Shown: one piece after another, positions 2,827 through 29,910 of the stretch | How the letters are laid out: each line of letters begins with the position of its first letter | Position numbering within the stretch: position 1 is the first letter of the stretch | Source: Telmatocola sphagniphila | GTDB lineage: Bacteria > Planctomycetota > Planctomycetia > Gemmatales > Gemmataceae | Reading direction: 5' to 3' | Length of the DNA: 32,000 nt | Assembly (NCBI RefSeq): GCF_018398935.1 | Contig: NZ_CP074694.1 | Coordinates: 2,580,001 to 2,612,000, forward strand | The notes under the pieces: model-generated | What the model saw: the letters and a program-made list of their open reading frames with translations, nothing else | What the model was told of the DNA's origin: nothing | Database searches by the model: none | Program-made: the position numbers and the translations under genes

Positions 2827-4870
2827 TCAAACGAGTGATACCACCCAGATTCAAACCCGCTGTCGTAAACCTACCCCCAAATTCAACACCCCATTCGAAT
2901 CCACCATAAACTGACCGCTGTTCGACCACGTCGGACTCGTCGAACCCACGCCATTCCCGGTCGGATTGATGTTGATCGTGCCACCACCCGTCGTCGAGCC
3001 TGCCAATAATGTACCCGTGTTCGTGAACGTCCCCGTCGGGTTGATGTTGATCACCGAGCTCGTATTGATCGCCTGAATCTTGCCACCATTTGTCAGATTC
3101 CCCGTACCACTGAAGTTGTAGTTGTTCCCGACTTGACCCGTCGTATTCGCCGACTGCGAGATCAACACATTACTGCCCAGACTTGCATTCGTATTCCCTT
3201 CCACCGCCACATAACTGTTCGAACCCAACGTAATCGAAACATTGTCCAGCACACTGGTCTGACCTATCCCCAAACCCGCCGAAGTACCTATCGTCACACT
3301 CGAACCCGAGGAAAAAGTGGAACCATTCGTCAAACGCACGTAATTGTTCGATCCTGACAAATTCAACGTCCCTGAAATCGCGACGCCACTCAACTGATTG
3401 TTGGAACTCGTCGACGCATTCAGACTTGACCCCCCCGAAGATGTAAACGTACCCCCGGATATCGTCCCGGCATTGAGCGTCAACGATCCCGTCGTTGCCG
3501 TCAACGCCAACGGGCCCCCCACCGTATTGTCCAACGTGCCCGTGATGTTGATCGTACCCCCCGCATTCAAACGAGTGATACCACCCAGATTCAAACCCGC
3601 CGTCGTAAACCTACCCCCAAATTCAACACCCCATTCGAATCCACCATAAACTGACCGCTGTTCGACCACGTCGGACTCGTCGAACCCACGCCATTCCCGG
3701 TCGGATTGATGTTGATCGTGCCACCACCCGTCGTCGAGCCTGCCAATAATGTACCCGTGTTCGTGAACGTCCCCGTCGGGTTGATGTTGATCACCGAGCT
3801 CGTATTGATCGCCTGAATCTTGCCACCATTTGTCAGATTCCCCGTACCACTGAAGTTGTAGTTGTTCCCAACCTGACCCGTTGTACTCGCCGACTGCGAG
3901 ATCAACACATTACTGCCCAGACTCGCATTCGTATTCCCTTCCACCGCCACATAACTGTTCGAACCCAACGTAATCGAAACATTGTCCAGCACACCGGTCT
4001 GACCTATCCCCAAGCCCGCCGAGGAACCTATCGTCACACTCGAACCCGAGGAAAAAGTGGAACCATTCGTCAAACGCACGTAATTGTTCGATCCTGACAA
4101 ATTCAGCGTCCCCGAAATCGCGACACCACTCAACTGATTGTTGGAACTCGTCGACGCATTCAGACTTGACCCCCCCGAAGATGTAAACGTACCCCCGGAT
4201 ATCGTCCCGGCATTGAGCGTCAACGATCCCGTCGTTGCCGTCAACGCCAACGGGCCCCCCACCGTATTGTCCAACGTGCCCGTGATGTTGATCGTACCCC
4301 CCGCATTCAAACGAGTGATACCACCCAGATTCAAACCCGCTGTCGTAAACCTACCCCCCAAATTCAACACCCCATTCGAATCCACCATAAACTGACCGCT
4401 GTTCGACCACGTCGGACTCGTCGAACCCACGCCATTCCCGGTCGGATTGATGTTGATCGTGCCACCACCCCCTACTGAACCCGCCAACAACGTACCTGTG
4501 TTCGTGAACGTACCCGTCGGGTTGATGTTGATCACCGAGCTCGTATTGATCGCCTGAATCTTGCCACCATTTGTCAGATTCCCCGTACCACTGAAGTTGT
4601 AACTGTTCCCGACTTGACCCGTTGTACTCGCCGACTGCGAGATCAACACATTACTGCCCAGACTTGCATTCGTATTCCCTTCCACCGCCACATAACTGTT
4701 CGAACCCAACGTAATCGAAACATTGTCCACCACACTGGTCTGACCTATTCCCAAACCCGCCGAAGAACCTATCGTCACACTCGAACCCGAGGAAAAGGTG
4801 GTACCGTTCACAAGTCGAACATAACTGCTCGCTGTCGATAAATTCAACGCGCCCGAAATCGCAACACCAT
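1500..4870. repeat. intragenic tandem repeat, 741-bp (247-codon) unit, ~4.5 copies
   Basis: The landmark TCAACTGATT recurs at 1911, 2652, 3390 and 4130, with spacings of 741, 738 and 740 bp. The shortfalls equal the 3 and 1 homopolymer deletions. Copies between ~2160 and ~4400 are almost base-identical; the outer copies (1500-1700, 4800-4870) are diverged. The array boundaries are approximate. Confidence 0.9.
2851..3669 (-). CDS. repeat surface protein, middle fragment (module 3)
   Basis: 272-aa ORF. After about 17 out-of-frame residues it reads GGRFTTAGLNLGGITRLNAGGTINITGTLDNTVGGPLALTATTGS..., identical to the neighbouring modules. It ends the same way (NLG|VGLRQRV*) at the G5 tract 2874-2878. 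Confidence 0.6.
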   Translation of the reverse strand: MVEQRSVYGGFEWGVEFGGRFTTAGLNLGGITRLNAGGTINITGTLDNTVGGPLALTATTGSLTLNAGTISGGTFTSSGGSSLNASTSSNNQLSGVAISGTLNLSGSNNYVRLTNGSTFSSGSSVTIGTSAGLGIGQTSVLDNVSITLGSNSYVAVEGNTNASLGSNVLISQSANTTGQVGNNYNFSGTGNLTNGGKIQAINTSSVININPTGTFTNTGTLLAGSTTGGGTININPTGNGVGSTSPTWSNSGQFMVDSNGVLNLGVGLRQRV

Positions 4871-13743: not shown

Positions 13744-16700
13744 ATGAAAAGGTCGCTACCCTCTGATCCCGAAGTACGCAGTCGTAAAAATCCGACTTCC
13801 AGTACACTTCAGCAAGCCATTCAAAAATTGGCTCCGGTCACGGATGCCAAACTCTTGGGTCGTTTTGTTGAAGAGGCGGACGCCACCGCTTTCGAAGAAA
13901 TCGTTCGTCGTTACGGCCCGATGGTCATGGGTGTTGCACGGCGCGCTCGCCTACAAAATCAAGATCAAGAAGATGTCTTTCAAGCGACTTTCTGGCTTTT
14001 GTCGCGCGATGGTCGCAAGATTCGCGAACGGGATCGACTGGCCGGTTGGCTGTATCAGGTGGCCCGCCGGATGTCCAAAAAATGCATACGATCCTACAAC
14101 AATAACCTGCTCGAAGCGGTTGCGGATCCGAGGACCGAAAATGATCCCGCTATTTCTGCTGGTTGGCGGGAATTCGCAGATGTGCTCGATGCGGAAATTC
14201 TGCGCTTGCCCACCGAACTCCGTTCGCCTCTGGTGATTTGCCTGCTGGAAGGAGCTACTCAAGAGCAGGCGGCCCAACGCTTGGGATGTTCTTATACCAC
14301 GCTCCGTCGTCGTTTCGATCGCGGCCGAAGTCTGCTTCGACTTCGCTTGGAAAAACGGGGGGTCGGCCCTTTGGCCATTGCCGTGCTGGCCCTTCCGCCA
14401 TCCCTGGCGCTTGGATCTGTGCCCCCGAGTCTTCTGCAATCCGTCTTTTTATTTGCATCGAAATCAACAAGCATCGCCCAAATCCCCGCTTCTGTCACGG
14501 CCCTCGTCTCCGTTAAGGTGATCAGCATGAAAACCGCTATTTTTGCAAGCCTATTCGCTCTAGGTATCAGCCTCTTTGCTTACTCTGTGACACCGGCCAG
14601 TTCTGCAGCCGCAAATGCATCTCCTGATACTGCGATCGAGTCGAACGAATCCGATCATAATCAGGAGGCGAAAAAAGAGAATCCCAAGCCCGGAACAAGT
14701 GAAATGACCTTCAAAGTTCTGGATGAATCTGGCAAGCCTCTCGCGGGAGCGGAACTCGAATTCAGCGTCTGGGCGGGTGAAGGAGAAAAAATTCCGAAAT
14801 GTAAAACGAATAGTGATGGCGTGGCTGTGATTCGAAGGCCAAACGAAATACAAACTCTTCGGGTCTGGTGCTCTGCTACTGGGTATGCAACGCTGTTTAG
14901 AGGCTGGGAAACGGGGACCACGGATCAAAATAACCCGCTGCCAGAAACATTCACATTTCCGATGAAAAAAGGAATTTCTATAGGTGGGAGAGTAGTTGAT
15001 CCAAAGGAAAACGGAATCGCTAATGTTCGAATAGAAGCGATCTGCGAGAAATATGCACCTCACAAATTTCCGAATAATACTCATTACGGCAATTCCTTAT
15101 CTTTAGTGAATAATGGCGTGCAGACAGACAAGGACGGCCATTGGAGCATCGATACTGTTCCTGAACCAGTGGAGGAAATCAGTCTTCGATTCCATAGTGA
15201 GGATTTCGCTTCGGATCTCTCCCTACCTTTCAGCATAATTCAAAAAGATCAAAATATCACGTTGAGTCAACTCAAGTCGAAAACCGCAGTGGCAAAGTTG
15301 AATTACGGATCTCGATTGCACGGCTTGATCACCGATCCCCAGGGTAAGCCGATCCCAAAAGCAGTGGTCATATTTCATGAAAACCCCTTTATGAACACGG
15401 GAACTCAGGTCGTTGCCGACGAAAATGGCAAATACAAAATGCCGGCTCTTCGGGAAGGAACGGAATCAATTACAGTTGTGGCCCCAGGATATTCTCCGCT
15501 ACTTAAAAACGTAAAAATGTTGCGCGGTCTGCAAGAGCAGAATTTCCAACTGGAAGTCGGTCATCCCCTGCGCTTGAAGGTAATCGATGAGGCAGGCCAT
15601 CCGGTCAAAGTTCACTTTGTACTCCAAGAATGGCGATCAAGAAGATCCCTTTATACAAGTCGTCTTCCAGACATGATTGACTTGCAAATCCCACGCTTTT
15701 CAAATGCGGAGGGAATATACGAATGGCTATGGGCACCTGCGGACGAAGTCAAATTCGAAATCATTGCGGAGAAGGAAATATTTCAAAGGCAAAGGATCGC
15801 CGTAAAAGCGGATGAGCCGCTGAAAACCATAGTCATGAAAAAACCGGCGTTTTTATCTGGAAATGTAAAGGATGCAGTAACTGGTAAACCGATTCCTAAA
15901 TTTCGGGTTTATCAGATAATCGAATTTTCTTCCGGATGGCTGTATTTGGAAAGAAATCAAAATTTTGTAACAGGAGAAAACGGCCGGTTCAAAATTCCGC
16001 TACAGAGGCCTGTAGACGACTTAAGAGTATTAATTGAAGCAGAGGGTTACCGGAGCACGGTCAGCAAACATTCCCTAATAAAAAATCATATACGCGAACA
16101 GGACTTCGCTTTAGAACCAGCCCTCTCAATTAAAGGGCGCATACTGGATGCGGAGGGCCTGCCTCTTAAGGAAGCGATGGTATCTGTAGCAAATAGCTTC
16201 CAAGGATTCGAATTTCAACGAACAAAAAACAATTCCACCTACAAAACAGATGAGCGGGGATACTTCCAACTTCCAGCCCAACCGGAAGACTACACTTTGA
16301 TCGTTTCGCATGCGTCGGGATTCAAAAGATTGGATTGTCGCAAAAGCGAAAGTAATCTTAGAGATATCACCGTGGAAAAATGGGTGACGATTCGAGGAAA
16401 AGTTTGGCAGGACGGCAAAACAATCCCGAATCAATGGATCGAACTCTTTCCAATACCTGGGGGAGAGTATGACAAGCACCACATCAGACTAAATCAGGGC
16501 ACTCAAACCAATGAAAAGGGGGAATTCGAGCTGACTCAGGTGCCCGCGGAACCGCTTTGTATTGAGACCAGACTCAATGTTTGGCTGCAATCAGTGTTAT
16601 CGAGCAGCGAGACTCGTCCCTTGAATCCTGTTCCTGGCGAAAAAATTTATCTGGACTTGAATAAGAACGGAGTCAAATTAACTGGTAATATCCATCTTTC

Positions 16701-17490
16701 AGGCGATCTCTCCAAGCTTTCGGATTTAGAGTATTCTCGATTAACCCTTTATAGACAGACTCCGGACATCAAGCTCCCTAAACCTTGGAATCTCCATCCC
16801 ATAGATTTTTCGAGTAAAATTGCCAACCATCAATTGGAATCCAATAGTAGCTTCGTACACAACGTCTTCGTGCTGAAGCCCAAATTGAATGGTCAGTATC
16901 AAATACACGGCGTGCCACCCGGAGATTATCTGTTTTCTATTCGAGTCAACGAGAAACCCGATGGCAGCTGCTTGGATGCGCCTCTCATTGAAAAACTCGT
17001 TCCCATCACCATCTCCCCCGAGGATGTGACCAAGGGCGAACTGCGACTGCCCGATATCGAAATCAAAGTACCCCAACGACTAGTACCGGGAACAGCCGTT
17101 CCGACAGCGACGTTGAGGGATTCGGACGGGAAGGAGATTTCTCTTAAGCAACACGAGGGCAAGTACCTTCTCCTGCATTGCTGGGCCGGATGGTGCACCG
17201 TGTGCTCCCGCTCCTATCCCGATTTGCAGAAGCTGGCTAGTGATTTTCCCAAGGAGAAGCTGGCCATCGTGGGACTCAATCTCGACACTACTGTTCGAGA
17301 AGGTGTGGAGAGTACCAGCAAAAACAAATTCACCTGGCCGCAGGCTTATCTGGCTGCGGAGGGTGGTGAAAAAGTCATCCAAGATTGGCAAATCACTTCT
17401 ATTCCGCAGTTTCTGTTAGTATCTCCGGAAGGAAAACTCGTTCTTCGCACTTGGTCAATCGAGGAAGTCCTTAAGGTATTGAAGCAGTAG
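13744..17490 (+). CDS. membrane-tethered ECF-type sigma-70 factor fused to a large extracytoplasmic region (multiple carboxypeptidase-regulatory-like beta-sandwich domains) and a C-terminal TlpA-like thioredoxin domain
   Basis: The sigma70 region 2 has EDVFQATFWLL...WLYQVARRMSKK. Region 4 has LPTELRSPLVICLLEGATQEQAAQRLGCSYTTLRRRFDRGRSLLRLRL (nt ~13860-14360). A hydrophobic helix KTAIFASLFALGISLFAYSV lies at nt 14527-14589. At least 5 segments resemble G(R/K)(V/I)xDxxGxP...DxxGxFxxP. The C-terminal redoxin fold has WAGWCTVC (CxxC at 17194-17205) and ...IPQFLLVSPEGKL. There is no in-frame stop anywhere in the 1248 codons. Confidence 0.85.
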   Translation: MKRSLPSDPEVRSRKNPTSSTLQQAIQKLAPVTDAKLLGRFVEEADATAFEEIVRRYGPMVMGVARRARLQNQDQEDVFQATFWLLSRDGRKIRERDRLAGWLYQVARRMSKKCIRSYNNNLLEAVADPRTENDPAISAGWREFADVLDAEILRLPTELRSPLVICLLEGATQEQAAQRLGCSYTTLRRRFDRGRSLLRLRLEKRGVGPLAIAVLALPPSLALGSVPPSLLQSVFLFASKSTSIAQIPASVTALVSVKVISMKTAIFASLFALGISLFAYSVTPASSAAANASPDTAIESNESDHNQEAKKENPKPGTSEMTFKVLDESGKPLAGAELEFSVWAGEGEKIPKCKTNSDGVAVIRRPNEIQTLRVWCSATGYATLFRGWETGTTDQNNPLPETFTFPMKKGISIGGRVVDPKENGIANVRIEAICEKYAPHKFPNNTHYGNSLSLVNNGVQTDKDGHWSIDTVPEPVEEISLRFHSEDFASDLSLPFSIIQKDQNITLSQLKSKTAVAKLNYGSRLHGLITDPQGKPIPKAVVIFHENPFMNTGTQVVADENGKYKMPALREGTESITVVAPGYSPLLKNVKMLRGLQEQNFQLEVGHPLRLKVIDEAGHPVKVHFVLQEWRSRRSLYTSRLPDMIDLQIPRFSNAEGIYEWLWAPADEVKFEIIAEKEIFQRQRIAVKADEPLKTIVMKKPAFLSGNVKDAVTGKPIPKFRVYQIIEFSSGWLYLERNQNFVTGENGRFKIPLQRPVDDLRVLIEAEGYRSTVSKHSLIKNHIREQDFALEPALSIKGRILDAEGLPLKEAMVSVANSFQGFEFQRTKNNSTYKTDERGYFQLPAQPEDYTLIVSHASGFKRLDCRKSESNLRDITVEKWVTIRGKVWQDGKTIPNQWIELFPIPGGEYDKHHIRLNQGTQTNEKGEFELTQVPAEPLCIETRLNVWLQSVLSSSETRPLNPVPGEKIYLDLNKNGVKLTGNIHLSGDLSKLSDLEYSRLTLYRQTPDIKLPKPWNLHPIDFSSKIANHQLESNSSFVHNVFVLKPKLNGQYQIHGVPPGDYLFSIRVNEKPDGSCLDAPLIEKLVPITISPEDVTKGELRLPDIEIKVPQRLVPGTAVPTATLRDSDGKEISLKQHEGKYLLLHCWAGWCTVCSRSYPDLQKLASDFPKEKLAIVGLNLDTTVREGVESTSKNKFTWPQAYLAAEGGEKVIQDWQITSIPQFLLVSPEGKLVLRTWSIEEVLKVLKQ

Positions 17491-19839: not shown

Positions 19840-20352
19840 CTAGGTGTAGCATTCAGAGAAATACTTCTGGATCTGGTTGACGAAGCCGCGAATCTCCGCA
19901 ACGGTCGGCCCTAATTTTTTCGCAGCCCAATTCACGTCCAGGAGTATTCTCGTCCAGAGCGTAGTTAGACTCTGAATTCCATAACTCCGACGTAGCACTA
20001 CCCGAATCTTGGTATTGAGACCTTCCACCGGGCCGCTGCTTTTGCGTTCCTCGAAGTAGGCTAAGATCCCCTCCCAGTTATTCTTGAGCATCGTGATGAA
20101 CGGCTCCCAATCCATCTCGGTCTCGCGGGCCTGGACGATCCAATCTTCCAACAGTCGCGAGGCTTCGGCTCGGTTGGGGGCACTATCGAAGATCTTGGTC
20201 GCCTCCCAACGCAGATGGTAGATCGTTCCCAACGAAGGCACCTTCTCGAACAAATCCTCGAGGGCCTGGACCTGCTCCGGATTCAAATCCTCGGGACGAC
20301 GCCGGAAGTCGTGCATCTGAGAACGCAGCTTCTTGCGGGCTTCCCCGCTCAA
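19840..20352 (-). CDS. ISL3 transposase, C-terminal part
   Basis: The -1 frame continues as ...KKNYRAYKRSLSGEARKKLRSQMHDFRRRPEDLNPEQ...NWEGILAYFEERKSSGPVEGLNTKIRVVLRRSYGIQSLTTLWTRILLDVN. The tracked start is only a TTG inside this frame. The stop codon lies inside the left inverted repeat. Confidence 0.8.
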   Translation of the reverse strand: MSGEARKKLRSQMHDFRRRPEDLNPEQVQALEDLFEKVPSLGTIYHLRWEATKIFDSAPNRAEASRLLEDWIVQARETEMDWEPFITMLKNNWEGILAYFEERKSSGPVEGLNTKIRVVLRRSYGIQSLTTLWTRILLDVNWAAKKLGPTVAEIRGFVNQIQKYFSECYT

Positions 20353-21155
20353 ACTTCGCTTGTAGGCTCGATAGTTTTTTTTCGCAGATCGTCCGCCACC
20401 TCACCCAATTTCTTGGCGACGTGAAAGCGATCTATCACCGACTGGCTGTTGGGTAAATGCACGCCGCAAGCCTTCAAATACGCCGCGCTCATGTCCGTAT
20501 GATGCCAACGCACCGCCGACCGTTGCTGGGCCGACAAACGCTCCAAACACGCTCGCCCCGCTGCTTCGTCGCGACCCTTGGACAGAGCCAGAATCTCCGG
20601 ACGCTCCCCATTCGTCAGGTCCGTCAATATTGTCGCATATCCCTTATGCCCCTTACGCAGGCTGATCTCATCCAGACCCAAACGCTCGATCTTCCGCTGG
20701 GGATCGATCTGCTTCGCCTTGGCGTCCTCTATCCGGTTCTTGACGATTCGCTCCACCGTCTCCGCGGCAATCCCCAAACGCACCGCCACGTCTTCGGCTG
20801 TGCTCCCGATCAGACTGACCAGCACCTGCTCCTCGAAGCGAAACGTATATTTCACATCCCGACGCTTGAACGGCGGCAACAGCGATTGACGGTGACCGCA
20901 CGACGGGCAGCGGTGATACACCTCCTGGTACACGAAAAAGCTCGGCTTACCCCACAAATCCAGATCGCGGATGCTCAGAAACTTGTTCTTCTCCACCAAT
21001 TGAAGCCGAGACTCTCGCTGGCAAGTCTCGCAACAAAGATTGTCGGGCAACTCCCAACTCACGTGAAAGGCGTGGCCACCGTCGACGCGTTCGTATTCGC
21101 CAACGCTCACTCCGGCAGGGACGTCCATGTCTATGGCAATGGTAGTCGTCGTCAT
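20349..21155 (-). CDS. ISL3 transposase, N-terminal part (zinc-finger/HTH + first part of DDE domain)
   Basis: CCETCQRES...HRCPSCGHRQ zinc finger, followed by ...HTDMSAAYLKACGVHLPNSQSVIDRFHVAKKLGEVADDLRKK. The frame is lost in the A8 run (T8 at 20375-20382 on the + strand). ATG 21155 is preferred over the tracked TTG 21197. Confidence 0.8.
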   Translation of the reverse strand: MTTTTIAIDMDVPAGVSVGEYERVDGGHAFHVSWELPDNLCCETCQRESRLQLVEKNKFLSIRDLDLWGKPSFFVYQEVYHRCPSCGHRQSLLPPFKRRDVKYTFRFEEQVLVSLIGSTAEDVAVRLGIAAETVERIVKNRIEDAKAKQIDPQRKIERLGLDEISLRKGHKGYATILTDLTNGERPEILALSKGRDEAAGRACLERLSAQQRSAVRWHHTDMSAAYLKACGVHLPNSQSVIDRFHVAKKLGEVADDLRKKTIEPTSEV

Positions 21156-21198
21156 CGGCTCTTCCGTGATCCAGGTAAAGGGTACTCTAAATTGCAAT

Positions 21199-24614: not shown

Positions 24615-24793
24615 GCCCCCCTCCTTCTAGTTCCATAATACTATTTCCGTCGATCAGAAGTAGCGATGGGGCTCTAATTTAGTACTTGCTTCTGCTCTAA
24701 AGTATCCGCATTGGTCCCTTCCCAACAATGCAGTTATTCAACTCCCTCCCTATAATCACTCTCCAGAATTGTTTTCGTTTTTTTGAGACCTGC

Positions 24794-26608
24794 ATGACGC
24801 TACTGCTAACGGCCCGGGAGATTTCCAAGAGCTACGCCCACAAGTCGCTCTTCACTCACCTCAACATCGATCTGCGCGCCGGGGAAAAGATCGGACTCAT
24901 CGGCCCCAACGGAGCCGGGAAATCGACCCTGCTCAAGATCCTCGCGGGCCTGGAAACGGCCGATGAGGGCGAACGAACCCTCCGTCGGGGGTCTCGTGTT
25001 GGCTACCTCGCCCAGGACGATGTTTTCCCCCCCAACCAGACCTGCGAAGAAGTGGTGATCGCTGGCCTGGCCAACGATAATCTCGAAGAACACGAAAAAA
25101 GCACCCGGGCAGCCATCGCTCTTACGCAAGTTGGTTTCGCCGACACAGAACAAAAAGCGGAAACTCTCTCCGGCGGCTGGCGTAAACGGCTCTCCATGGC
25201 TCGCGAACTGGCCCGCCAACCCGATTTCCTGCTCATGGACGAACCGACCAACCACCTCGATCTGCCGGGGGTAATCTGGCTCGAAAAATTGCTCCGTTCA
25301 GCCTCCTTCGGCTATCTGGCCGCCACACACGACCGGGCTTTTCTGCGAGCCATTGCCGATGAGGTGATTGAAATCAATCGCAGCTATCCAGAAGGCGTTT
25401 TCCGGGTTGCAGGCTGCTACGACGATTTCGCCGAAAAAAAAGAAGCTTTTCTGGAAGCCCAGGAAAAGTTCCGCGACGCCGTAGCCAATCAAGTCCGCCG
25501 GGAAACCGACTGGCTCGGCCACAAAGCCCGGGCCCGGACTCGCAAAGCCAGCTCCCGAATTCAAGCAGCGGCCGACCGACGCGAACAACTCTCGGAACTC
25601 AACTATCGGACGGCCTCCCAACAATCGGCGGGTATCGATTTTGCCGCGACCGGCCGACAGACCAAAAAACTGCTGACCGCTACCGGAATATCCAAATCCC
25701 TGGGTGGGAAAAAGCTTTTCTCAAATTTGGATGTGATGTTGATTCCTGGTATGAAACTGGGACTCCTTGGGGCCAACGGCAGCGGCAAAAGCACGATCTT
25801 GAAGATCATTGCCGGGCAAATGGAATCGGATACCGGCACCGTGGTTCGGGCCGAAGGTCTTAGAACAGAAGTTTTTGAGCAAGGCCGATCTTCCCTCGAT
25901 CTTTCCCTTTCTCTACGAAAGTCACTCACTCCGAACAGCGACACCGTGATGTTTCGCGATCAGCCGGTGCATGTGGCGAGTTGGGCCCGACGGTTTTTGT
26001 TTTCCCCCGAACAGTTGGAACTGGAATTGAGTGCCTTTTCCGGCGGCGAGCAAGCCCGAGTCCGGCTGGCTCAGTTGATGCTCCGGCCCGCCGATATTCT
26101 GCTCCTGGATGAACCGACGAACGATCTCGATATCCCTGCACTGGAGATGCTCGAGGAAAATCTCGAAGAATTTCCGGGGGCGTTGGTCATGGTCAGCCAC
26201 GACCGGGATCTGCTCGACCGGATCTGCACGGAAGTGATCGGCCTGGATGGCCTGGGTAACGCGGCTGCCTACGGCAGTGTCGATCAATGGCTGAAAGTTT
26301 ATGAAAAAGCCCAATCTGCGATAAAAACGGAAGCAAACAAGGCGGCCAGCAAGGCTGCAAGTAGCTCCTCTTCGAGCAAAAGCAAAAAGCTGAGCTACAA
26401 GGAACAGCAGGAATTCGACGGTATTGAAGCGAAGATTCTGCAAGCGGAGCAGAATGTCGCCGTTCGCGAGGCCGAGGTGGAGAAAGCCTCCAATTCCGGC
26501 CATGCCGTATTGAATGACGCCTGCAAGCAATTGGAAGAAGCCCAACGAGCAGTGGAAAAGCTTTATGCCCGCTGGTCGGAGCTGGAAGCGAAGAAAAACT
26601 CGGGCTGA
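24794..26608 (+). CDS. uup: ABC-F family ATPase (two ABC domains, no TM), Uup-like with C-terminal coiled coil
   Basis: Two Walker A motifs (GPNGAGKST, GANGSGKST), two signature motifs (LSGGWRKR, FSGGEQAR) and two Walker B motifs (LLMDEPTNHLD, LLLDEPTNDLD). The C-terminal tail KSKKLSYKEQQEF...LYARWSELEAKKNSG parallels the E. coli Uup C-terminus. ATG 24794 is preferred over the tracked 24728. The symbol is by resemblance only. Confidence 0.9.
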   Translation: MTLLLTAREISKSYAHKSLFTHLNIDLRAGEKIGLIGPNGAGKSTLLKILAGLETADEGERTLRRGSRVGYLAQDDVFPPNQTCEEVVIAGLANDNLEEHEKSTRAAIALTQVGFADTEQKAETLSGGWRKRLSMARELARQPDFLLMDEPTNHLDLPGVIWLEKLLRSASFGYLAATHDRAFLRAIADEVIEINRSYPEGVFRVAGCYDDFAEKKEAFLEAQEKFRDAVANQVRRETDWLGHKARARTRKASSRIQAAADRREQLSELNYRTASQQSAGIDFAATGRQTKKLLTATGISKSLGGKKLFSNLDVMLIPGMKLGLLGANGSGKSTILKIIAGQMESDTGTVVRAEGLRTEVFEQGRSSLDLSLSLRKSLTPNSDTVMFRDQPVHVASWARRFLFSPEQLELELSAFSGGEQARVRLAQLMLRPADILLLDEPTNDLDIPALEMLEENLEEFPGALVMVSHDRDLLDRICTEVIGLDGLGNAAAYGSVDQWLKVYEKAQSAIKTEANKAASKAASSSSSSKSKKLSYKEQQEFDGIEAKILQAEQNVAVREAEVEKASNSGHAVLNDACKQLEEAQRAVEKLYARWSELEAKKNSG

Positions 26609-26646
26609 TGGGTTTGATGTTTTTTAGAAGTTTTTAGAAGTCATAT

Positions 26647-26732
26647 AACCGCAGAGCACGCCGAGGGCGCAGAGAATAACCGTTAGAGATTTTTTTTTCA
26701 CCACAGAGTACACCGAGAGCACTGAGAGTAAC
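26647..26732 (+). repeat. two isolated 9-nt-periodic CACNGAG-type modules (diverged partial unit preceding the array)
   Basis: The modules are aacCGCAGAGcacGCCGAGggcGCAGAGaataac (26647-26680) and caCCACAGAGtaCACCGAGagCACTGAGagtaac (26699-26732), separated by a T9 run (26690-26698). A direct repeat TTTTTAGAAG x2 at 26621-26640 precedes them. Confidence 0.8.
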
Positions 26733-26773
26733 TTCTCTTCGTTATATATTTGCTGCGTGATCAGCCGCTTCTC

Positions 26774-28085
26774 TGTTGAAAATGCTCTGCATTTTCAACG
26801 ACTTACAAGAACTATCCCCCAGCCACAGAATCCCCTCCGTGTTCTCCGTGCCCTCTGTGGTTAAAATCCTTCAATCACAACAACGTTAGAGACACGCATC
26901 GAAACCGGAACCACTCCCCCCTCCGTCCACTTTTTTCCTTCTCACCTCTGCGAACTCTGCGGCTTCAGTCTTTCTCAAAACTTTTACCACCGAGAGCACA
27001 GAGAGCACAGAGAGCACAGAGAGTCGCCTCGTTCCGCGGCCAGGCTTCCCACACTCTCAATGCCCTCTGTTGAAAATGCTCTGCATTTTCAACGACTTAC
27101 AAGAACTATTCCCCAATCACAGAATCCCCTCCGTGTTCTCCGTGCCCTCTGTGGTTAAAATCCTTCAATCACAACAACGTTAGAGACACGCATCGAAACC
27201 GGAACCACTCCCCCCTCCGTCCACTTTTTTCCTTCTCACCTCTGCGAACTCTGCGAACTCTGCGGTTTCAGTCTTTCTCAAAACTTTTACCACCGAGAGC
27301 ACAGAGAGTCGCCTCGTTTCGCGGCCGTGCTTCCCACACTCTCAATGCCCTCTGATGAAAATGCTCTGCATTTTCAACGACTTACAAAATCTATTCCCCA
27401 GCCACAGAACCCCTCACTGCTCTCGGTGCCCTCTGTGGTTAAAATCCTTCAATCCCAACAACGTTAGAGAAACGCATCGAAACCGGCGCCACTCCCCCCT
27501 CCGTCCACTTTTTTCCTTCTCACCTCTGCGAACTCTGCGAACTCTGCGGTTTCAGTCTTTCTCAAAACTTTTACCACCGAGAACACAGAGAGCACAGAGA
27601 GTCGCCTCGCTTCGCGGCCATGCGTCCCACACTCTCAATGCCCTCTGTTGAAAATGCTCTGCATTTTCAACGACTTACAAAATCTATTCCCCAATCACAG
27701 AATCCCCTCCGTGTTCTCCGTGCCCTCTGTGGTTAAAATCCTTCAATCCCAACAACGTTAGAGAAACGCATCGAAACCGGAACCACTCCCCCCTCCGTCC
27801 ACTTTTTTCCTTCTCACCTCTGCGAACTCTGCGAACTCTGCGGTTTCAGTCTTTCTCAAAACTTTTACCACCGAGAACACCGAGAGCACAGAGAGTCGCC
27901 TCGTTTCGCGGCCGTGCTTCCCACACTCTCAATGCCCTCTGTTGAAAATGCTCTGCATTTTCAACGACTTACAAAATCTATTCCCCAGCCACAGAACCCC
28001 TCACTGCTCTCGGTGCCCTCTGTGGTTAAAATCCTTCAATCCCAACAACGTTAGAGAAACGCATCGAAACCGGAACCAGTCCCCG
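26774..28085 (+). repeat. non-coding tandem array, ~294-bp unit x 4.5
   Basis: The unit start TGTTGAAAATGCTCTGCATTTTCAACGACTTACAA occurs at 26774, 27068, 27353 (TGATG variant), 27646 and 27940. The periods are 294, 285, 293 and 294 bp. The last unit is truncated near 28085, where similarity ends (ggaaccaCtcccccctcc versus ggaaccaGtccccggcgg). Confidence 0.92.
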
Positions 28086-28263: not shown

Positions 28264-29910
28264 ATGCTAGTTTATCGTCGGTTAGCTCTACCCGTACTCT
28301 GCTTATGGGGGTTGTTCGCTTCCACCAGCAAACTCCCAGCACAAGAAGCCGCCAAAACTGGCCCCTTTTCCATCGACCGAATCAAAACCGATGTGAAATA
28401 TCTCTCCAGCGATCTCCTCCAGGGTCGCGGCGTCGGCACTCGCGGCGAAGAACTGGCCACCGATTATATTGCTGAGCAGTTCAAGAAGGCCGGCTTGAAG
28501 CCCATGGTTGGCAAAGCGTCCTATTTCCAGCCGGTGCCATTAGTTACCGTCACAACCACACCCACAACGACTCTCAGCTTCAGCAAGGGAAACGATATTA
28601 CTCTGCTGAAGCTCGAGGACGAATTTGCTGGGATGAGTTACAGCCAGAAAGATGAAGATTTCGAAGCCGAAGCTATTTTCGTCGGGCATGGGATTACTGC
28701 CCCGGAATTCGACTGGGATGATTACAAGGATGTCGATGTAAAAGGCAAAGTAGTGGTGCTGTTCACCAACGAACCACCTTCGGACGATCCCAAATTCTTC
28801 GCCGGCAAAGCCCTCACCTACTATGGCCGGTGGACTTACAAATACGAGGAAGCCACCCGCCGTGGTGCCAAAGCCGCCCTGATTATTCACACGGCCGAAA
28901 CCGCCGGTTACCCTTATGGCGTGGTGAAGAAACTGACCGGCGCCCAGATCCAGCACGAAGAAAATGCACCCGCCCTGGCCTTTGCCGGTTGGCTATCCTC
29001 GACTGCAGGCGACAAAGTTCTGGGTAGCATTGGCCTGAATGTCGACACGGCCTTGAAACAGGCCAATACCAAAGGTTTCAAAGCGAAAAGCCTGGGGATC
29101 ACGGTCAAGGGACACATCGCCAGCACCGTCAAGAAGGTCTCTTCCAAAAACGTGGTGGGTCTTGTCGAAGGCAGCGATCCCGAACTGAAATCGGAGATCG
29201 TTCTATTCACGGCCCACTGGGATCATCTCGGTGTGGGCAAATCCTCGGTCGGCGGCGAAGCGATCTTCAACGGAGCACTGGATAACGCTTCGGGTTGTGG
29301 CATCCTCATCGAAATGGCCCGTACCTGGGCCTCCCTGAATCCCAAACCGAAACGCTCGGCCCTGTTCCTGGCGACGACGGCCGAGGAAAGCGGATTGCTC
29401 GGGGCTTTATACTACTCCCAACATCCGCTTATTCCTCTGGGCCGCACGGCCATGAACTTCAATTTCGACACAGTCTCCCCTATTGGGGAACCCGAATCGA
29501 TTGTGCTCAGCGGCGCGGAAAGAACCACCAGCTGGTCGATCCTGCAAAATATCGCTGCTAAGCACCATCTGGAAATCGAACCCGACAAGCGCAGCCATCT
29601 GGGCTACTATTACCGGTCGGATCACTTCGCCATGGCTCGAGGGGGCGTACCGGCTTTCTCCGTGGGTCGTGGGGAGAAAATTAAAGGTAAGCCAGCCGAT
29701 TTCGCCAAGAAAGCCAGTGAAGATTTCATTGCGAACATTTATCACAGCCCGAACGACAAATACAAAGAAGAGTGGGATTTCACCGGCTACCCGGTGCTGA
29801 TGGGATTCGCTTTGGATGCCGCGAAGGAAATTGCCAACGCCAAGTCGATGCCGACCTGGAATCCGGGAGATGAGTTCCTGGAGGCTCGAATCAAGAGCGG
29901 CGTCAAATAA
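28264..29910 (+). CDS. secreted M28-family zinc aminopeptidase with PA (protease-associated) domain
   Basis: Signal peptide MLVYRRLALPVLCLWGLFASTSKLPAQEA. The PA-domain-like segment includes VKGKVVVLF. The M28 metal-ligand blocks are FTAHWDHLG, NGALDNASGCGILIEMAR, LATTAEESGLLGA and YHSPNDK. ATG 28264 is preferred over the tracked TTG 28183. Confidence 0.9.
   Translation: MLVYRRLALPVLCLWGLFASTSKLPAQEAAKTGPFSIDRIKTDVKYLSSDLLQGRGVGTRGEELATDYIAEQFKKAGLKPMVGKASYFQPVPLVTVTTTPTTTLSFSKGNDITLLKLEDEFAGMSYSQKDEDFEAEAIFVGHGITAPEFDWDDYKDVDVKGKVVVLFTNEPPSDDPKFFAGKALTYYGRWTYKYEEATRRGAKAALIIHTAETAGYPYGVVKKLTGAQIQHEENAPALAFAGWLSSTAGDKVLGSIGLNVDTALKQANTKGFKAKSLGITVKGHIASTVKKVSSKNVVGLVEGSDPELKSEIVLFTAHWDHLGVGKSSVGGEAIFNGALDNASGCGILIEMARTWASLNPKPKRSALFLATTAEESGLLGALYYSQHPLIPLGRTAMNFNFDTVSPIGEPESIVLSGAERTTSWSILQNIAAKHHLEIEPDKRSHLGYYYRSDHFAMARGGVPAFSVGRGEKIKGKPADFAKKASEDFIANIYHSPNDKYKEEWDFTGYPVLMGFALDAAKEIANAKSMPTWNPGDEFLEARIKSGVK

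Follow-up and report, generated by a model that had tools for sequence, protein, structure and literature searches.

Location and architecture of the repeat array

The DNA stretch analysed here, hereafter the window, covers 32,000 nucleotides of Telmatocola sphagniphila (contig NZ_CP074694.1, positions 2,580,001 to 2,612,000), and all coordinates given without a contig handle refer to it. Between the stop codon of an ABC-F ATPase gene (26608) and the start codon of an M28 peptidase gene (28264) lies a gap of 1.65 kb, which is the site of one large tandem array (Table 1). Tandem Repeats Finder (TRF) reported a single array with a period of 294, 4.5 copies, 92% matches and a score of 2183. The alignment of its five units, U1 to U5, starting at positions 26774, 27068, 27353, 27646 and 27940, revealed a constant internal order: a palindrome, the module M1 built of CTCNGTG nonamers, a linker of about 85 nt (84-86), the module M2 (CTCTGCGaa), a linker of 26 nt, the module M3 (CACNGAGag) and a linker of about 46 nt. 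Each of the blocks M1, M2 and M3 contains two to four nonamers, and the variant M1 of U3 and U5 reads CTCACTGCT CTCGGTGCC CTCTGTG.

These results bear out most of a preliminary description of the locus made from its letters alone, which had proposed a tandem array of an approximately 294-bp unit in 4.5 copies between the same two flanking genes, with the same internal order and the modules M1, M2 and M3 in every unit. The palindrome, likewise claimed for every unit, is present at all five sites, the copy in U3 having one stem mismatch. As had also been stated, no reading frame is conserved, since no frame remains open across the units. The length of the M1-M2 linker, given there as about 95 nt, had to be corrected to the value above.

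The CACNGAG/CTCNGTG modules are strongly over-represented, with 20 matches against 0.02 expected under one pattern definition and 25 against 0.27 under another. Within the window, the matches are confined to the ABC-F/M28 gap, and no further copies were found in the window plus 3.9 kb of contig L001.

The array is real and non-coding. Its copies vary in the number of nonamers and are distinguished pairwise by 4-16 positions; identity is highest between alternate units (U2-U4 98.6%, U3-U5 96.6%), and neighbouring units are 94-96% identical. Independent short-read data of this organism, assembled with k=31 (Logan SRR14506984), gave a contig that begins at 28049, which is the first unique 31-mer past the array, and such a break is the expected de Bruijn behaviour of a real repeat. 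The view that a single unit was spuriously expanded could draw on the error-proneness of tandem repeats exceeding the short-read length and on the failure of the Logan assembly to cross the array, but the source is a finished 6.59-Mb contig, the differences between copies form a consistent alternating pattern and the short-read contig breaks as it would for a real branching repeat in the reads, so that an assembly artefact is very unlikely indeed.

The unit-spanning open reading frames (ORFs) matched no Pfam family, and a translated unit ORF gave no hit among 5.8 billion proteins. The Rfam scan yielded no hit at gathering score in the window and only chance-level hits in the gap at E<10, in line with the earlier remark that the unit was not recognised as a described RNA family. 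The unit linkers had no hit in IMG/VR, and the non-module parts of the unit had no exact relatives in the genome, metagenome and viral collections searched. No sigma-70-like promoter or intrinsic terminator was detected within the units, with the reservation that the consensus may not suit planctomycete promoters. A tandem array of small RNA genes, similar to NsiR1, was rejected on the same grounds and with the same reservation.

Other identities were also rejected. For a replication origin, the window shows no skew switch and contains no dnaA, parAB or other replication or partition gene; the sequence TGTGGTTAA is one mismatch from a DnaA box, and most termini of the repeat family described below have TGTGGTGAA instead. 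A centromere was rejected as well. The array is not a CRISPR locus, as the whole 294-bp unit repeats and leaves no unique spacers, and no cas domains were found in the window.

Table 1. Features of the ABC-F/M28 gap of T. sphagniphila and its flanking genes. Positions refer to the window; F and R denote blocks of CRCNGAG and CTCNGYG orientation, respectively.
Feature	Position	Strand	Remark
ABC-F ATPase gene	24728-26608	+	Upstream flank
Whole repeat-bearing part of the gap	26641-28085	.	
F(CGC) block CGCAGAGca CGCCGAGgg CGCAGAG	26650-26674	+	Founder outer left arm
ttcac + F(CAC) block CACAGAGta CACCGAGag CACTGAG	26697-26726 (block 26702-26726)	+	Founder inner left arm; most diverged, oldest M3 copy
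Tandem array	26771-28084	.	TRF and unit identities
Palindrome GTTGAAAATGC-TCT-GCATTTTCAAC	26775-26799	.	Loop tip of element 1
Palindrome, other copies	27069-27093, 27354-27378, 27647-27671, 27941-27965		27354-27378 (U3): one stem mismatch, GATG...
Degenerate single F heptamer CACAGAA + M1 + gttaa terminus	26824-26864	+	
M1, R(CAC) block CTCCGTGtt CTCCGTGcc CTCTGTG	26835-26859		Inner right arm
M1, other copies	27129-27153, 27413-27437, 27707-27731, 28000-28024		27413-27437 and 28000-28024: variant
M2, R(CGC) block CTCTGCGaa x2	26946-26961	+	Founder outer right arm
M2, other copies	27240-27264, 27524-27548, 27818-27842		x3
tttac + M3, F(CAC) block	26983-27021 (block 26988-27021)	+	4 nonamers
M3, other copies	27291-27306, 27575-27599, 27869-27893		x2, x3 and x3, respectively
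Complete element in natural phase: tttac-F(CAC)x3, loop, R(CAC)x3-gttaa	27864-28029	.	106-nt loop with palindrome
Starts of the reiterated segment	26697, 26983, 27286, 27570, 27864		26697 oldest; 27864 truncated at 28085
M28 peptidase gene	28264-29910	+	Downstream flank; protein 100% identical to the T. sphagniphila one

The modules belong to a widespread family of inverted repeats

The modules are not restricted to this locus, as matches of the same family occur elsewhere. By their sequence architecture, the modules can be assigned to a widespread intergenic inverted-repeat family that is found in several phyla and on viral contigs. The family is an operational definition made in this analysis. 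Its members begin with ttYAC, followed by a left arm of 2-4 CRCNGAG heptamers at a period of 8-9 nt, an arbitrary loop, a right arm of CTCNGYG heptamers and the end GTKAA, which gives the consensus ttYAC-(CRCNGAGn1-2)x2-3 - variable loop - (CTCNGYGn1-2)x2-3-GTKAA.

The entry to the family was a metagenome scan with a unit-specific 22-mer (the end of M1 and its flank), which matched only two soil contigs, both from another organism. In these contigs, folD and coaE are separated by 160 nt with the sequence stop..TTAAC-CACAGAGaCACAGAG - 90 nt - CTCTGCGaCTCTGTGcCTCTGTG-GTGAA..ATG. One of them (L023), which carries this compact element, also contains an Acido-Lenti-1 RNA (Rfam RF01687, 50.9 bits) at 17288-17333 on the minus strand, and the proximity of this RNA suggests an acidobacterial origin of the L023 contig group.

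The scan of IMG/VR for three CACNGAG repeats of period 9 revealed at least 120 loci. Among the matches listed, in 1.1 Mb of IMG/VR sequence, neighbouring blocks followed the order F-then-R 28 times versus 4 times for R-then-F. Such a bias is irrelevant to a hairpin alone, and it implies that the element has defined ends. The termini were compared in 26 elements: a sequence ending in AC (TTCAC or TTAAC) stands before the left arm in 20, and one beginning with GT (GTGAA or GTTAA) follows the right arm in 18. Loop length varies between 6 and about 180 nt. The loop sequences show no relationship to one another and are in many cases AT-rich, with a palindrome at the tip. The two replicons of Gemmatirosa kalamazoonensis, megaplasmids of about 1 Mb each, carry 26 and 33 copies, and Bacteroides plasmids also have members of the family. 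A canonical element, TTCAC-CACAGAGgaCGCAGAGgaCACGGAG - 12-13-nt loop - CTCTGTGccCTCCGTGtcCTCTGTG-GTGAA, was observed at 3001-3071 of both L153 and L154, where it lies between gmd and the GDP-L-fucose synthase gene (fcl) of Bacteroides ovatus and B. finegoldii, with conserved arms and different loops. Overall, the family extends over Planctomycetota, Gemmatimonadota, Bacteroidota (including human-gut Bacteroides), probable Acidobacteriota and many viral contigs.

The Telmatocola locus shares the arms, the termini and the intergenic location that define the family, whose dispersal in many copies within one genome is seen in Gemmatirosa. Left arms of at least two tandem CRCNGAG heptamers are provided by the M3 blocks and by the blocks within 26641-26773, and a downstream right arm of at least two CTCNGYG heptamers, at a loop length within 6-200 nt, is reached from the M3 of one unit to the M1 of the next (loop of about 106 nt). 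The family termini are present in every Telmatocola copy, and the location between the ABC-F stop and the M28 start is intergenic.

The Rfam scan of family members at other loci gave no match to the elements. A literature search of limited scope found no description of the heptamer-armed family, which is not proof of novelty; the family is apparently unnamed. The terminal inverted repeats of TIRYT, considered as possible relatives, are unrelated and carry GGGGWSAS.

Natural element, founder and growth of the array

In the array, tttac precedes every M3 and gttaa follows every M1 (tttac-CACCGAG and CTCTGTG-gttaa). Because the family shows the F-then-R order and the ttYAC...GTKAA termini, the natural element consists of M3, the palindrome and the M1 of the next unit. 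The palindrome-phased 294-bp unit, with which the locus had been described, is therefore not the natural element by family architecture. The fold z-scores in the natural phase (27864-28029) were -6.8 for the plus strand and -7.8 for the minus strand, and those in the palindrome-first phase were -3.9 and -3.6. The computed folds also support the earlier suggestion that blocks of the M1 and M3 types could pair in long interrupted helices. The energy of the arm-to-arm duplex fails to discriminate between the phases, as any M3 pairs with any M1.

A nested element was found in Gemmatirosa, in which outer CGCAGAG...CTCTGCG arms surround inner CACGGAG...CTCCGTG arms, and the blocks at the left end of the Telmatocola locus are arranged in the same way. 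By this comparison of sequences, M2 can be identified as the outer arm of a nested element. The nested order indicates that the region 26641-26773 supplies the left arms of the founder, with the first M1 and M2 completing the element. Originally, the gap contained a nested element (26650-26961) of the form F(CGC)-F(CAC)-loop with an 11-bp palindrome-R(CAC)-R(CGC). The region 26641-26773 had earlier been called a diverged partial unit; it is not a mere decayed copy, as it holds two blocks of the opposite, CRCNGAG orientation.

The array reiterates the segment F(CAC)-loop-R(CAC)-linker-R(CGC)-linker. The array grew most recently by duplication of a two-unit block, and the number of heptamers drifts between two and four per block. 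The 294-bp segment would have been reiterated by unequal recombination or replication slippage between heptamer blocks. Judged from the sequence, the 294-bp unit is best regarded as a product of local tandem duplication and not as a new large repeat family.

Conservation of heptamer blocks at orthologous sites

The folD-coaE gap was compared in six related species, whose FolD proteins are about 90-94% identical to the query. The element always occupies the same site, and the loops are unrelated. In L023 and L027 it has 2-3 heptamers per arm, in L028 and L152 one arm is decaying, in L150 a minimal hairpin of 1-2 heptamers is left, and in L151 only the F arm is present, the R arm and the loop having been lost. 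The persistence of the blocks at orthologous sites points to some constraint or continual regeneration rather than to pure junk. In the neighbouring coaE-htrA gap (L023 11748-11800, as well as L027, L150, L151 and L152), 2-4 CGCNGAG heptamers in one orientation lie directly 3' of the coaE stop codon.

Complementarity between the arms was analysed in 26 independent elements at the variable positions, i.e., the N of the heptamer and the spacers. Watson-Crick complementarity was found at 78 of 138 positions for arms of the same element, compared with 62 of 123 for arms paired randomly between elements. Positions compatible with G.U pairing numbered 20 versus 18, without strand bias. The persistence of single-orientation blocks and the uncompensated pairing make a function of the hairpin alone doubtful. 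Across the sequences compared, it is the heptamer consensus and the arrangement of blocks that appear to be maintained, and not the fine pairing of the stem. A reading of the arms purely as an 'RNA stem' is thereby weakened, and the blocks may instead be recognised by a protein or regenerated continually.

Across the family, Shine-Dalgarno-like GGAGG/GAGGA is frequent in left arms, as is its complement CCTCC in right arms (e.g., L149 29967-30038 and L153 3003-3066), and on viral contigs blocks of the left-arm type often lie directly upstream of small ORFs or run into them. In L023 (18816-19275) and L027 (18645-19100), a PDDEXK_3 (GxxExxY) nuclease gene lies exactly between inverted CGCCGAG/CTCGGCG arms; its start codon adjoins the left arm, and its C-terminal ...DSAFSATSAVS is encoded by the right arm. 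This may be a selfish small gene carried inside the element. GxxExxY genes may commonly be flanked by such repeats, which we mention as a lead and not as a result. PDDEXK_3 as general cargo was not supported, as the other ORFs enclosed by arms encode DUF551, an NrdR-like zinc ribbon or unknown products.

Interpretation of the array and alternative explanations

From the combined analyses, the locus is moderately likely to have arisen by local amplification of a single member of a widespread intergenic hairpin-repeat family; it would thus be a cluster similar to those of the repetitive extragenic palindromic (REP) sequences and bacterial interspersed mosaic elements (BIMEs) rather than a set of genes. 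In itself, the repeated DNA is probably selfish or near-neutral. If transcripts of the ABC-F gene read through into the array, each element would fold into a long interrupted hairpin, and the resulting chain of five hairpins would act as REP, BIME or Correia sequences do, as a barrier to 3' exonucleases, a substrate of double-strand RNases or a transcriptional insulator. The 1.65-kb non-coding gap would then be explained as an amplified repeat cluster and not as a hidden gene, and short-read assemblies are expected to break at the array. With arms kept while loops decay, the family would be a candidate conserved post-transcriptional or DNA-level signal.

Several observations speak against such an amplified, largely neutral cluster. 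Heptamer blocks are kept at orthologous sites even though the loops have diverged beyond recognition, and single-orientation blocks persist without an inverted partner in the coaE-htrA gap of five diverged relatives. The arms pair without fine compensation. Folding of the minus strand is favoured by 3-13 kcal/mol over that of the plus strand, which would fit an antisense RNA. Finally, amplification to as many as 4.5 copies is out of the ordinary: in 1.35 Mb of module-bearing DNA, no comparable case exceeded 1.9 copies. The case with 1.9 copies, at L037 23-517 (period 267, 92% matches), is the sole other duplication of larger period that includes a heptamer block in the same DNA.

A tentative alternative, possible though not probable, is that the elements are an undescribed cross-phylum class of intergenic signals, in which runs of CRCNGAG are read by a dedicated trans-acting factor. 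It is compatible with blocks kept at orthologous sites, with randomised loops and with the lack of an Rfam or literature description in our searches. Such signals might mark the boundaries of small inserted genes (PDDEXK_3/GxxExxY) or control translation through GGAGG-like left and CCUCC-like right arms, and the Telmatocola array, with about 40 such sites, would represent an extreme accumulation that might itself be functional.

The heptamer blocks might also be arrays of binding sites for a trans-acting protein that works on DNA, e.g., a nucleoid-associated, topoisomerase-recruiting, partition or replication protein, for which the array would form a platform of about 40 sites. We consider this unlikely. 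BIMEs bind gyrase and IHF, and direct repeats spaced at 8-9 nt, combined with inverted blocks and defined termini, are typical of multi-site recognition; the conservation of the heptamer consensus in place of arm-to-arm complementarity, and the persistence of single-orientation blocks at orthologous sites, argue in the same direction. However, the genes next to the array include no candidate for such a binding protein, the window has neither a skew switch nor a dnaA, parAB or replication gene, and members of the family lie in ordinary gaps between housekeeping genes of four phyla, which would require any single dedicated partner to be very widely distributed.

A structured RNA with a function of its own, perhaps encoded on the minus strand of the array, is quite unlikely; it might serve, e.g., as a multi-hairpin decoy or sponge or be processed into small RNAs. 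The fold z-scores between -3.6 and -7.8 agree with this possibility, as does the consistently greater stability of the minus strand, which arises because C.A mismatches of the plus strand become G.U pairs there. Moreover, in one acidobacterial orthologue the decayed arm repeat CATAGGG still pairs via two wobbles on the coding strand. Nevertheless, the RNA would have neither an Rfam match nor a promoter-like or terminator-like signal per unit, the 26 elements show no strand bias of G.U pairs and almost no excess complementarity at variable positions, and the R arm was lost in one orthologue. The copies of the array are themselves too alike for independent covariation.

An origin of the elements as active, non-autonomous transposons resembling miniature inverted-repeat transposable elements (MITEs) appears decidedly improbable; the heptamers would be subterminal transposase sites and the array would result from insertions at a hot spot. 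Such transposons would account for the defined ends and the strong F-then-R preference, the dozens of near-identical copies with homologous loops on each Gemmatirosa replicon, the occurrence in several phyla and on viral contigs and the PDDEXK_3 nuclease gene placed exactly between the arms at one locus. Against them, the linkers too are 94-99% identical between units, which indicates tandem duplication and not independent insertions, and the occupation of the same site in six diverged relatives indicates vertical inheritance. A target-site duplication is unreadable, because TTAAC/GTTAA and TTCAC/GTGAA are themselves inverted repeats. The cargo ORFs are heterogeneous, and a matching transposase was not detected; the window's sole transposase is the ISL3 pseudogene described below. 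No autonomous partner with the same ends was seen among the sequences examined.

Genomic neighbourhood and further repeats

The genes near the array include several that are typical of Planctomycetes (PSCyt2/PSD1, DUF1501, DUF1559 and a fusion with an extracytoplasmic function (ECF) sigma factor). The last of these, a protein of 1248 aa encoded at 13744-17490 (+), combines N-terminal ECF sigma-70 regions 2 and 4, several CarboxypepD_reg domains and a C-terminal AhpC/TSA thioredoxin-like domain, and is an unusual sigma-factor fusion. At 19840-21197 (-), two overlapping ORFs make up a split ISL3-family transposase, with DDE_Tnp_ISL3 in halves and, in addition, HTH_Tnp_ISL3. It is probably a frameshifted pseudogene. 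As the nearest transposase, it lies 5.4 kb upstream of the array, which agrees with the earlier observation that none is adjacent. The exact look-up of the ABC-F protein gave no record. Synteny is not conserved across four Gemmataceae relatives (including Zavarzinella), in which the M28 gene has other surroundings, and the 80 kb of sequence from these relatives contained neither an array nor heptamer modules and showed nothing similar to the gap. Between the ABC-F stop codon and the first heptamer block there is also a perfect direct repeat, TTTTTAGAAG x2.1, at 26621-26641 (+).

The scan of a genome collection with the 21-nt palindrome gave 15 hits, all in unrelated archaeal or bacterial metagenome-assembled genomes (MAGs) that share only the hairpin, with no Telmatocola locus among them. 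The exact hairpin TGAAAATGC-TCT-GCATTTTCA occurs in L002-L016, assigned to Methanosarcinales (four contigs), Methanospirillum (two), Methanobacteriota (two), Opitutia (two) and others. In these MAGs it is usually the tip of a longer, non-conserved palindrome, is present in 2-3 copies per MAG with shared flanks and has no Rfam hit. Its recurrence is probably a coincidence among hairpins, together with local repeat families; the matches are compatible with coincidence because a perfect hairpin specifies, by a rough estimate, only about 12 nt.

Comparison with known systems

The elements resemble the attC sites of integrons in that both are imperfect inverted repeats, variable at the centre and interspersed between genes, and some family termini (..TTAAC ... 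GTTAA..) are reminiscent of the AAC/GTT cores of the attC R''/R' boxes. The identity with attC was nevertheless rejected: most family ends are CAC/GTG, an integrase is lacking, the genes on either side have housekeeping functions and are not cassettes, and the arms are runs of heptamers.

Heptamer repeats of the sequence TAACTGA have been described in Beggiatoaceae, Cyanobacteria and Bacteroidetes, with a patchy distribution over several phyla and no known mechanism (PMC4679880). Like these and the cyanobacterial short tandemly repeated repetitive (STRR) sequences, the heptamer-armed family consists of tandem 7-nt motifs, 2-6 copies per set, that are intergenic and often near start codons. The TAACTGA repeats are contiguous and, with a single indirect case, in direct orientation only, whereas the family described here has a spacing of 1-2 nt, usually inverted pairs of blocks and defined termini.

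The similarity to MITEs such as Correia of Neisseria, ERIC of Yersinia and the pneumococcal BOX lies in the size of 60-200 bp, the terminal inverted repeats and the location in gaps between genes. BOX elements are also modular, with a variable number of internal modules, and for all three a long hairpin is predicted on co-transcription, as it is for the present elements. The hairpins of co-transcribed MITEs of these types are RNase substrates. Unlike Correia, ERIC and BOX, the heptamer-armed elements have loops that are unrelated between species, internally repetitive arms and no identifiable target-site duplication, and to our knowledge no cognate transposase is known for them.

The closest analogy is offered by the REP sequences, BIMEs and REPINs of Enterobacteria and Pseudomonas, which are likewise composed of short intergenic inverted modules in alternating orientation with fixed linkers, lie mostly between genes as singletons, dimers or clusters and form hairpins if transcribed. 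No RAYT (Y1/HUH transposase) was present among the ORFs of the window scanned against Pfam. A REP is defined as an imperfect palindrome of 20-40 nt with a terminal GTAG or CGTC tetranucleotide (PMC3733652). In contrast, the Telmatocola arms are runs of a 7-nt motif at a period of 8-9 nt, carry neither tag and end in CAC/GTG; the reiterated unit is also much larger (294 bp), and the family occurs in at least four phyla. The Telmatocola array itself is a tandem cluster of alternating modules with fixed linkers, as known for REP-type clusters, and the comparison with BIME/REP arrays made in the preliminary description is apt, given that REP dimers have been reported to be reiterated in tandem together with their flanking DNA (PMC3733652).

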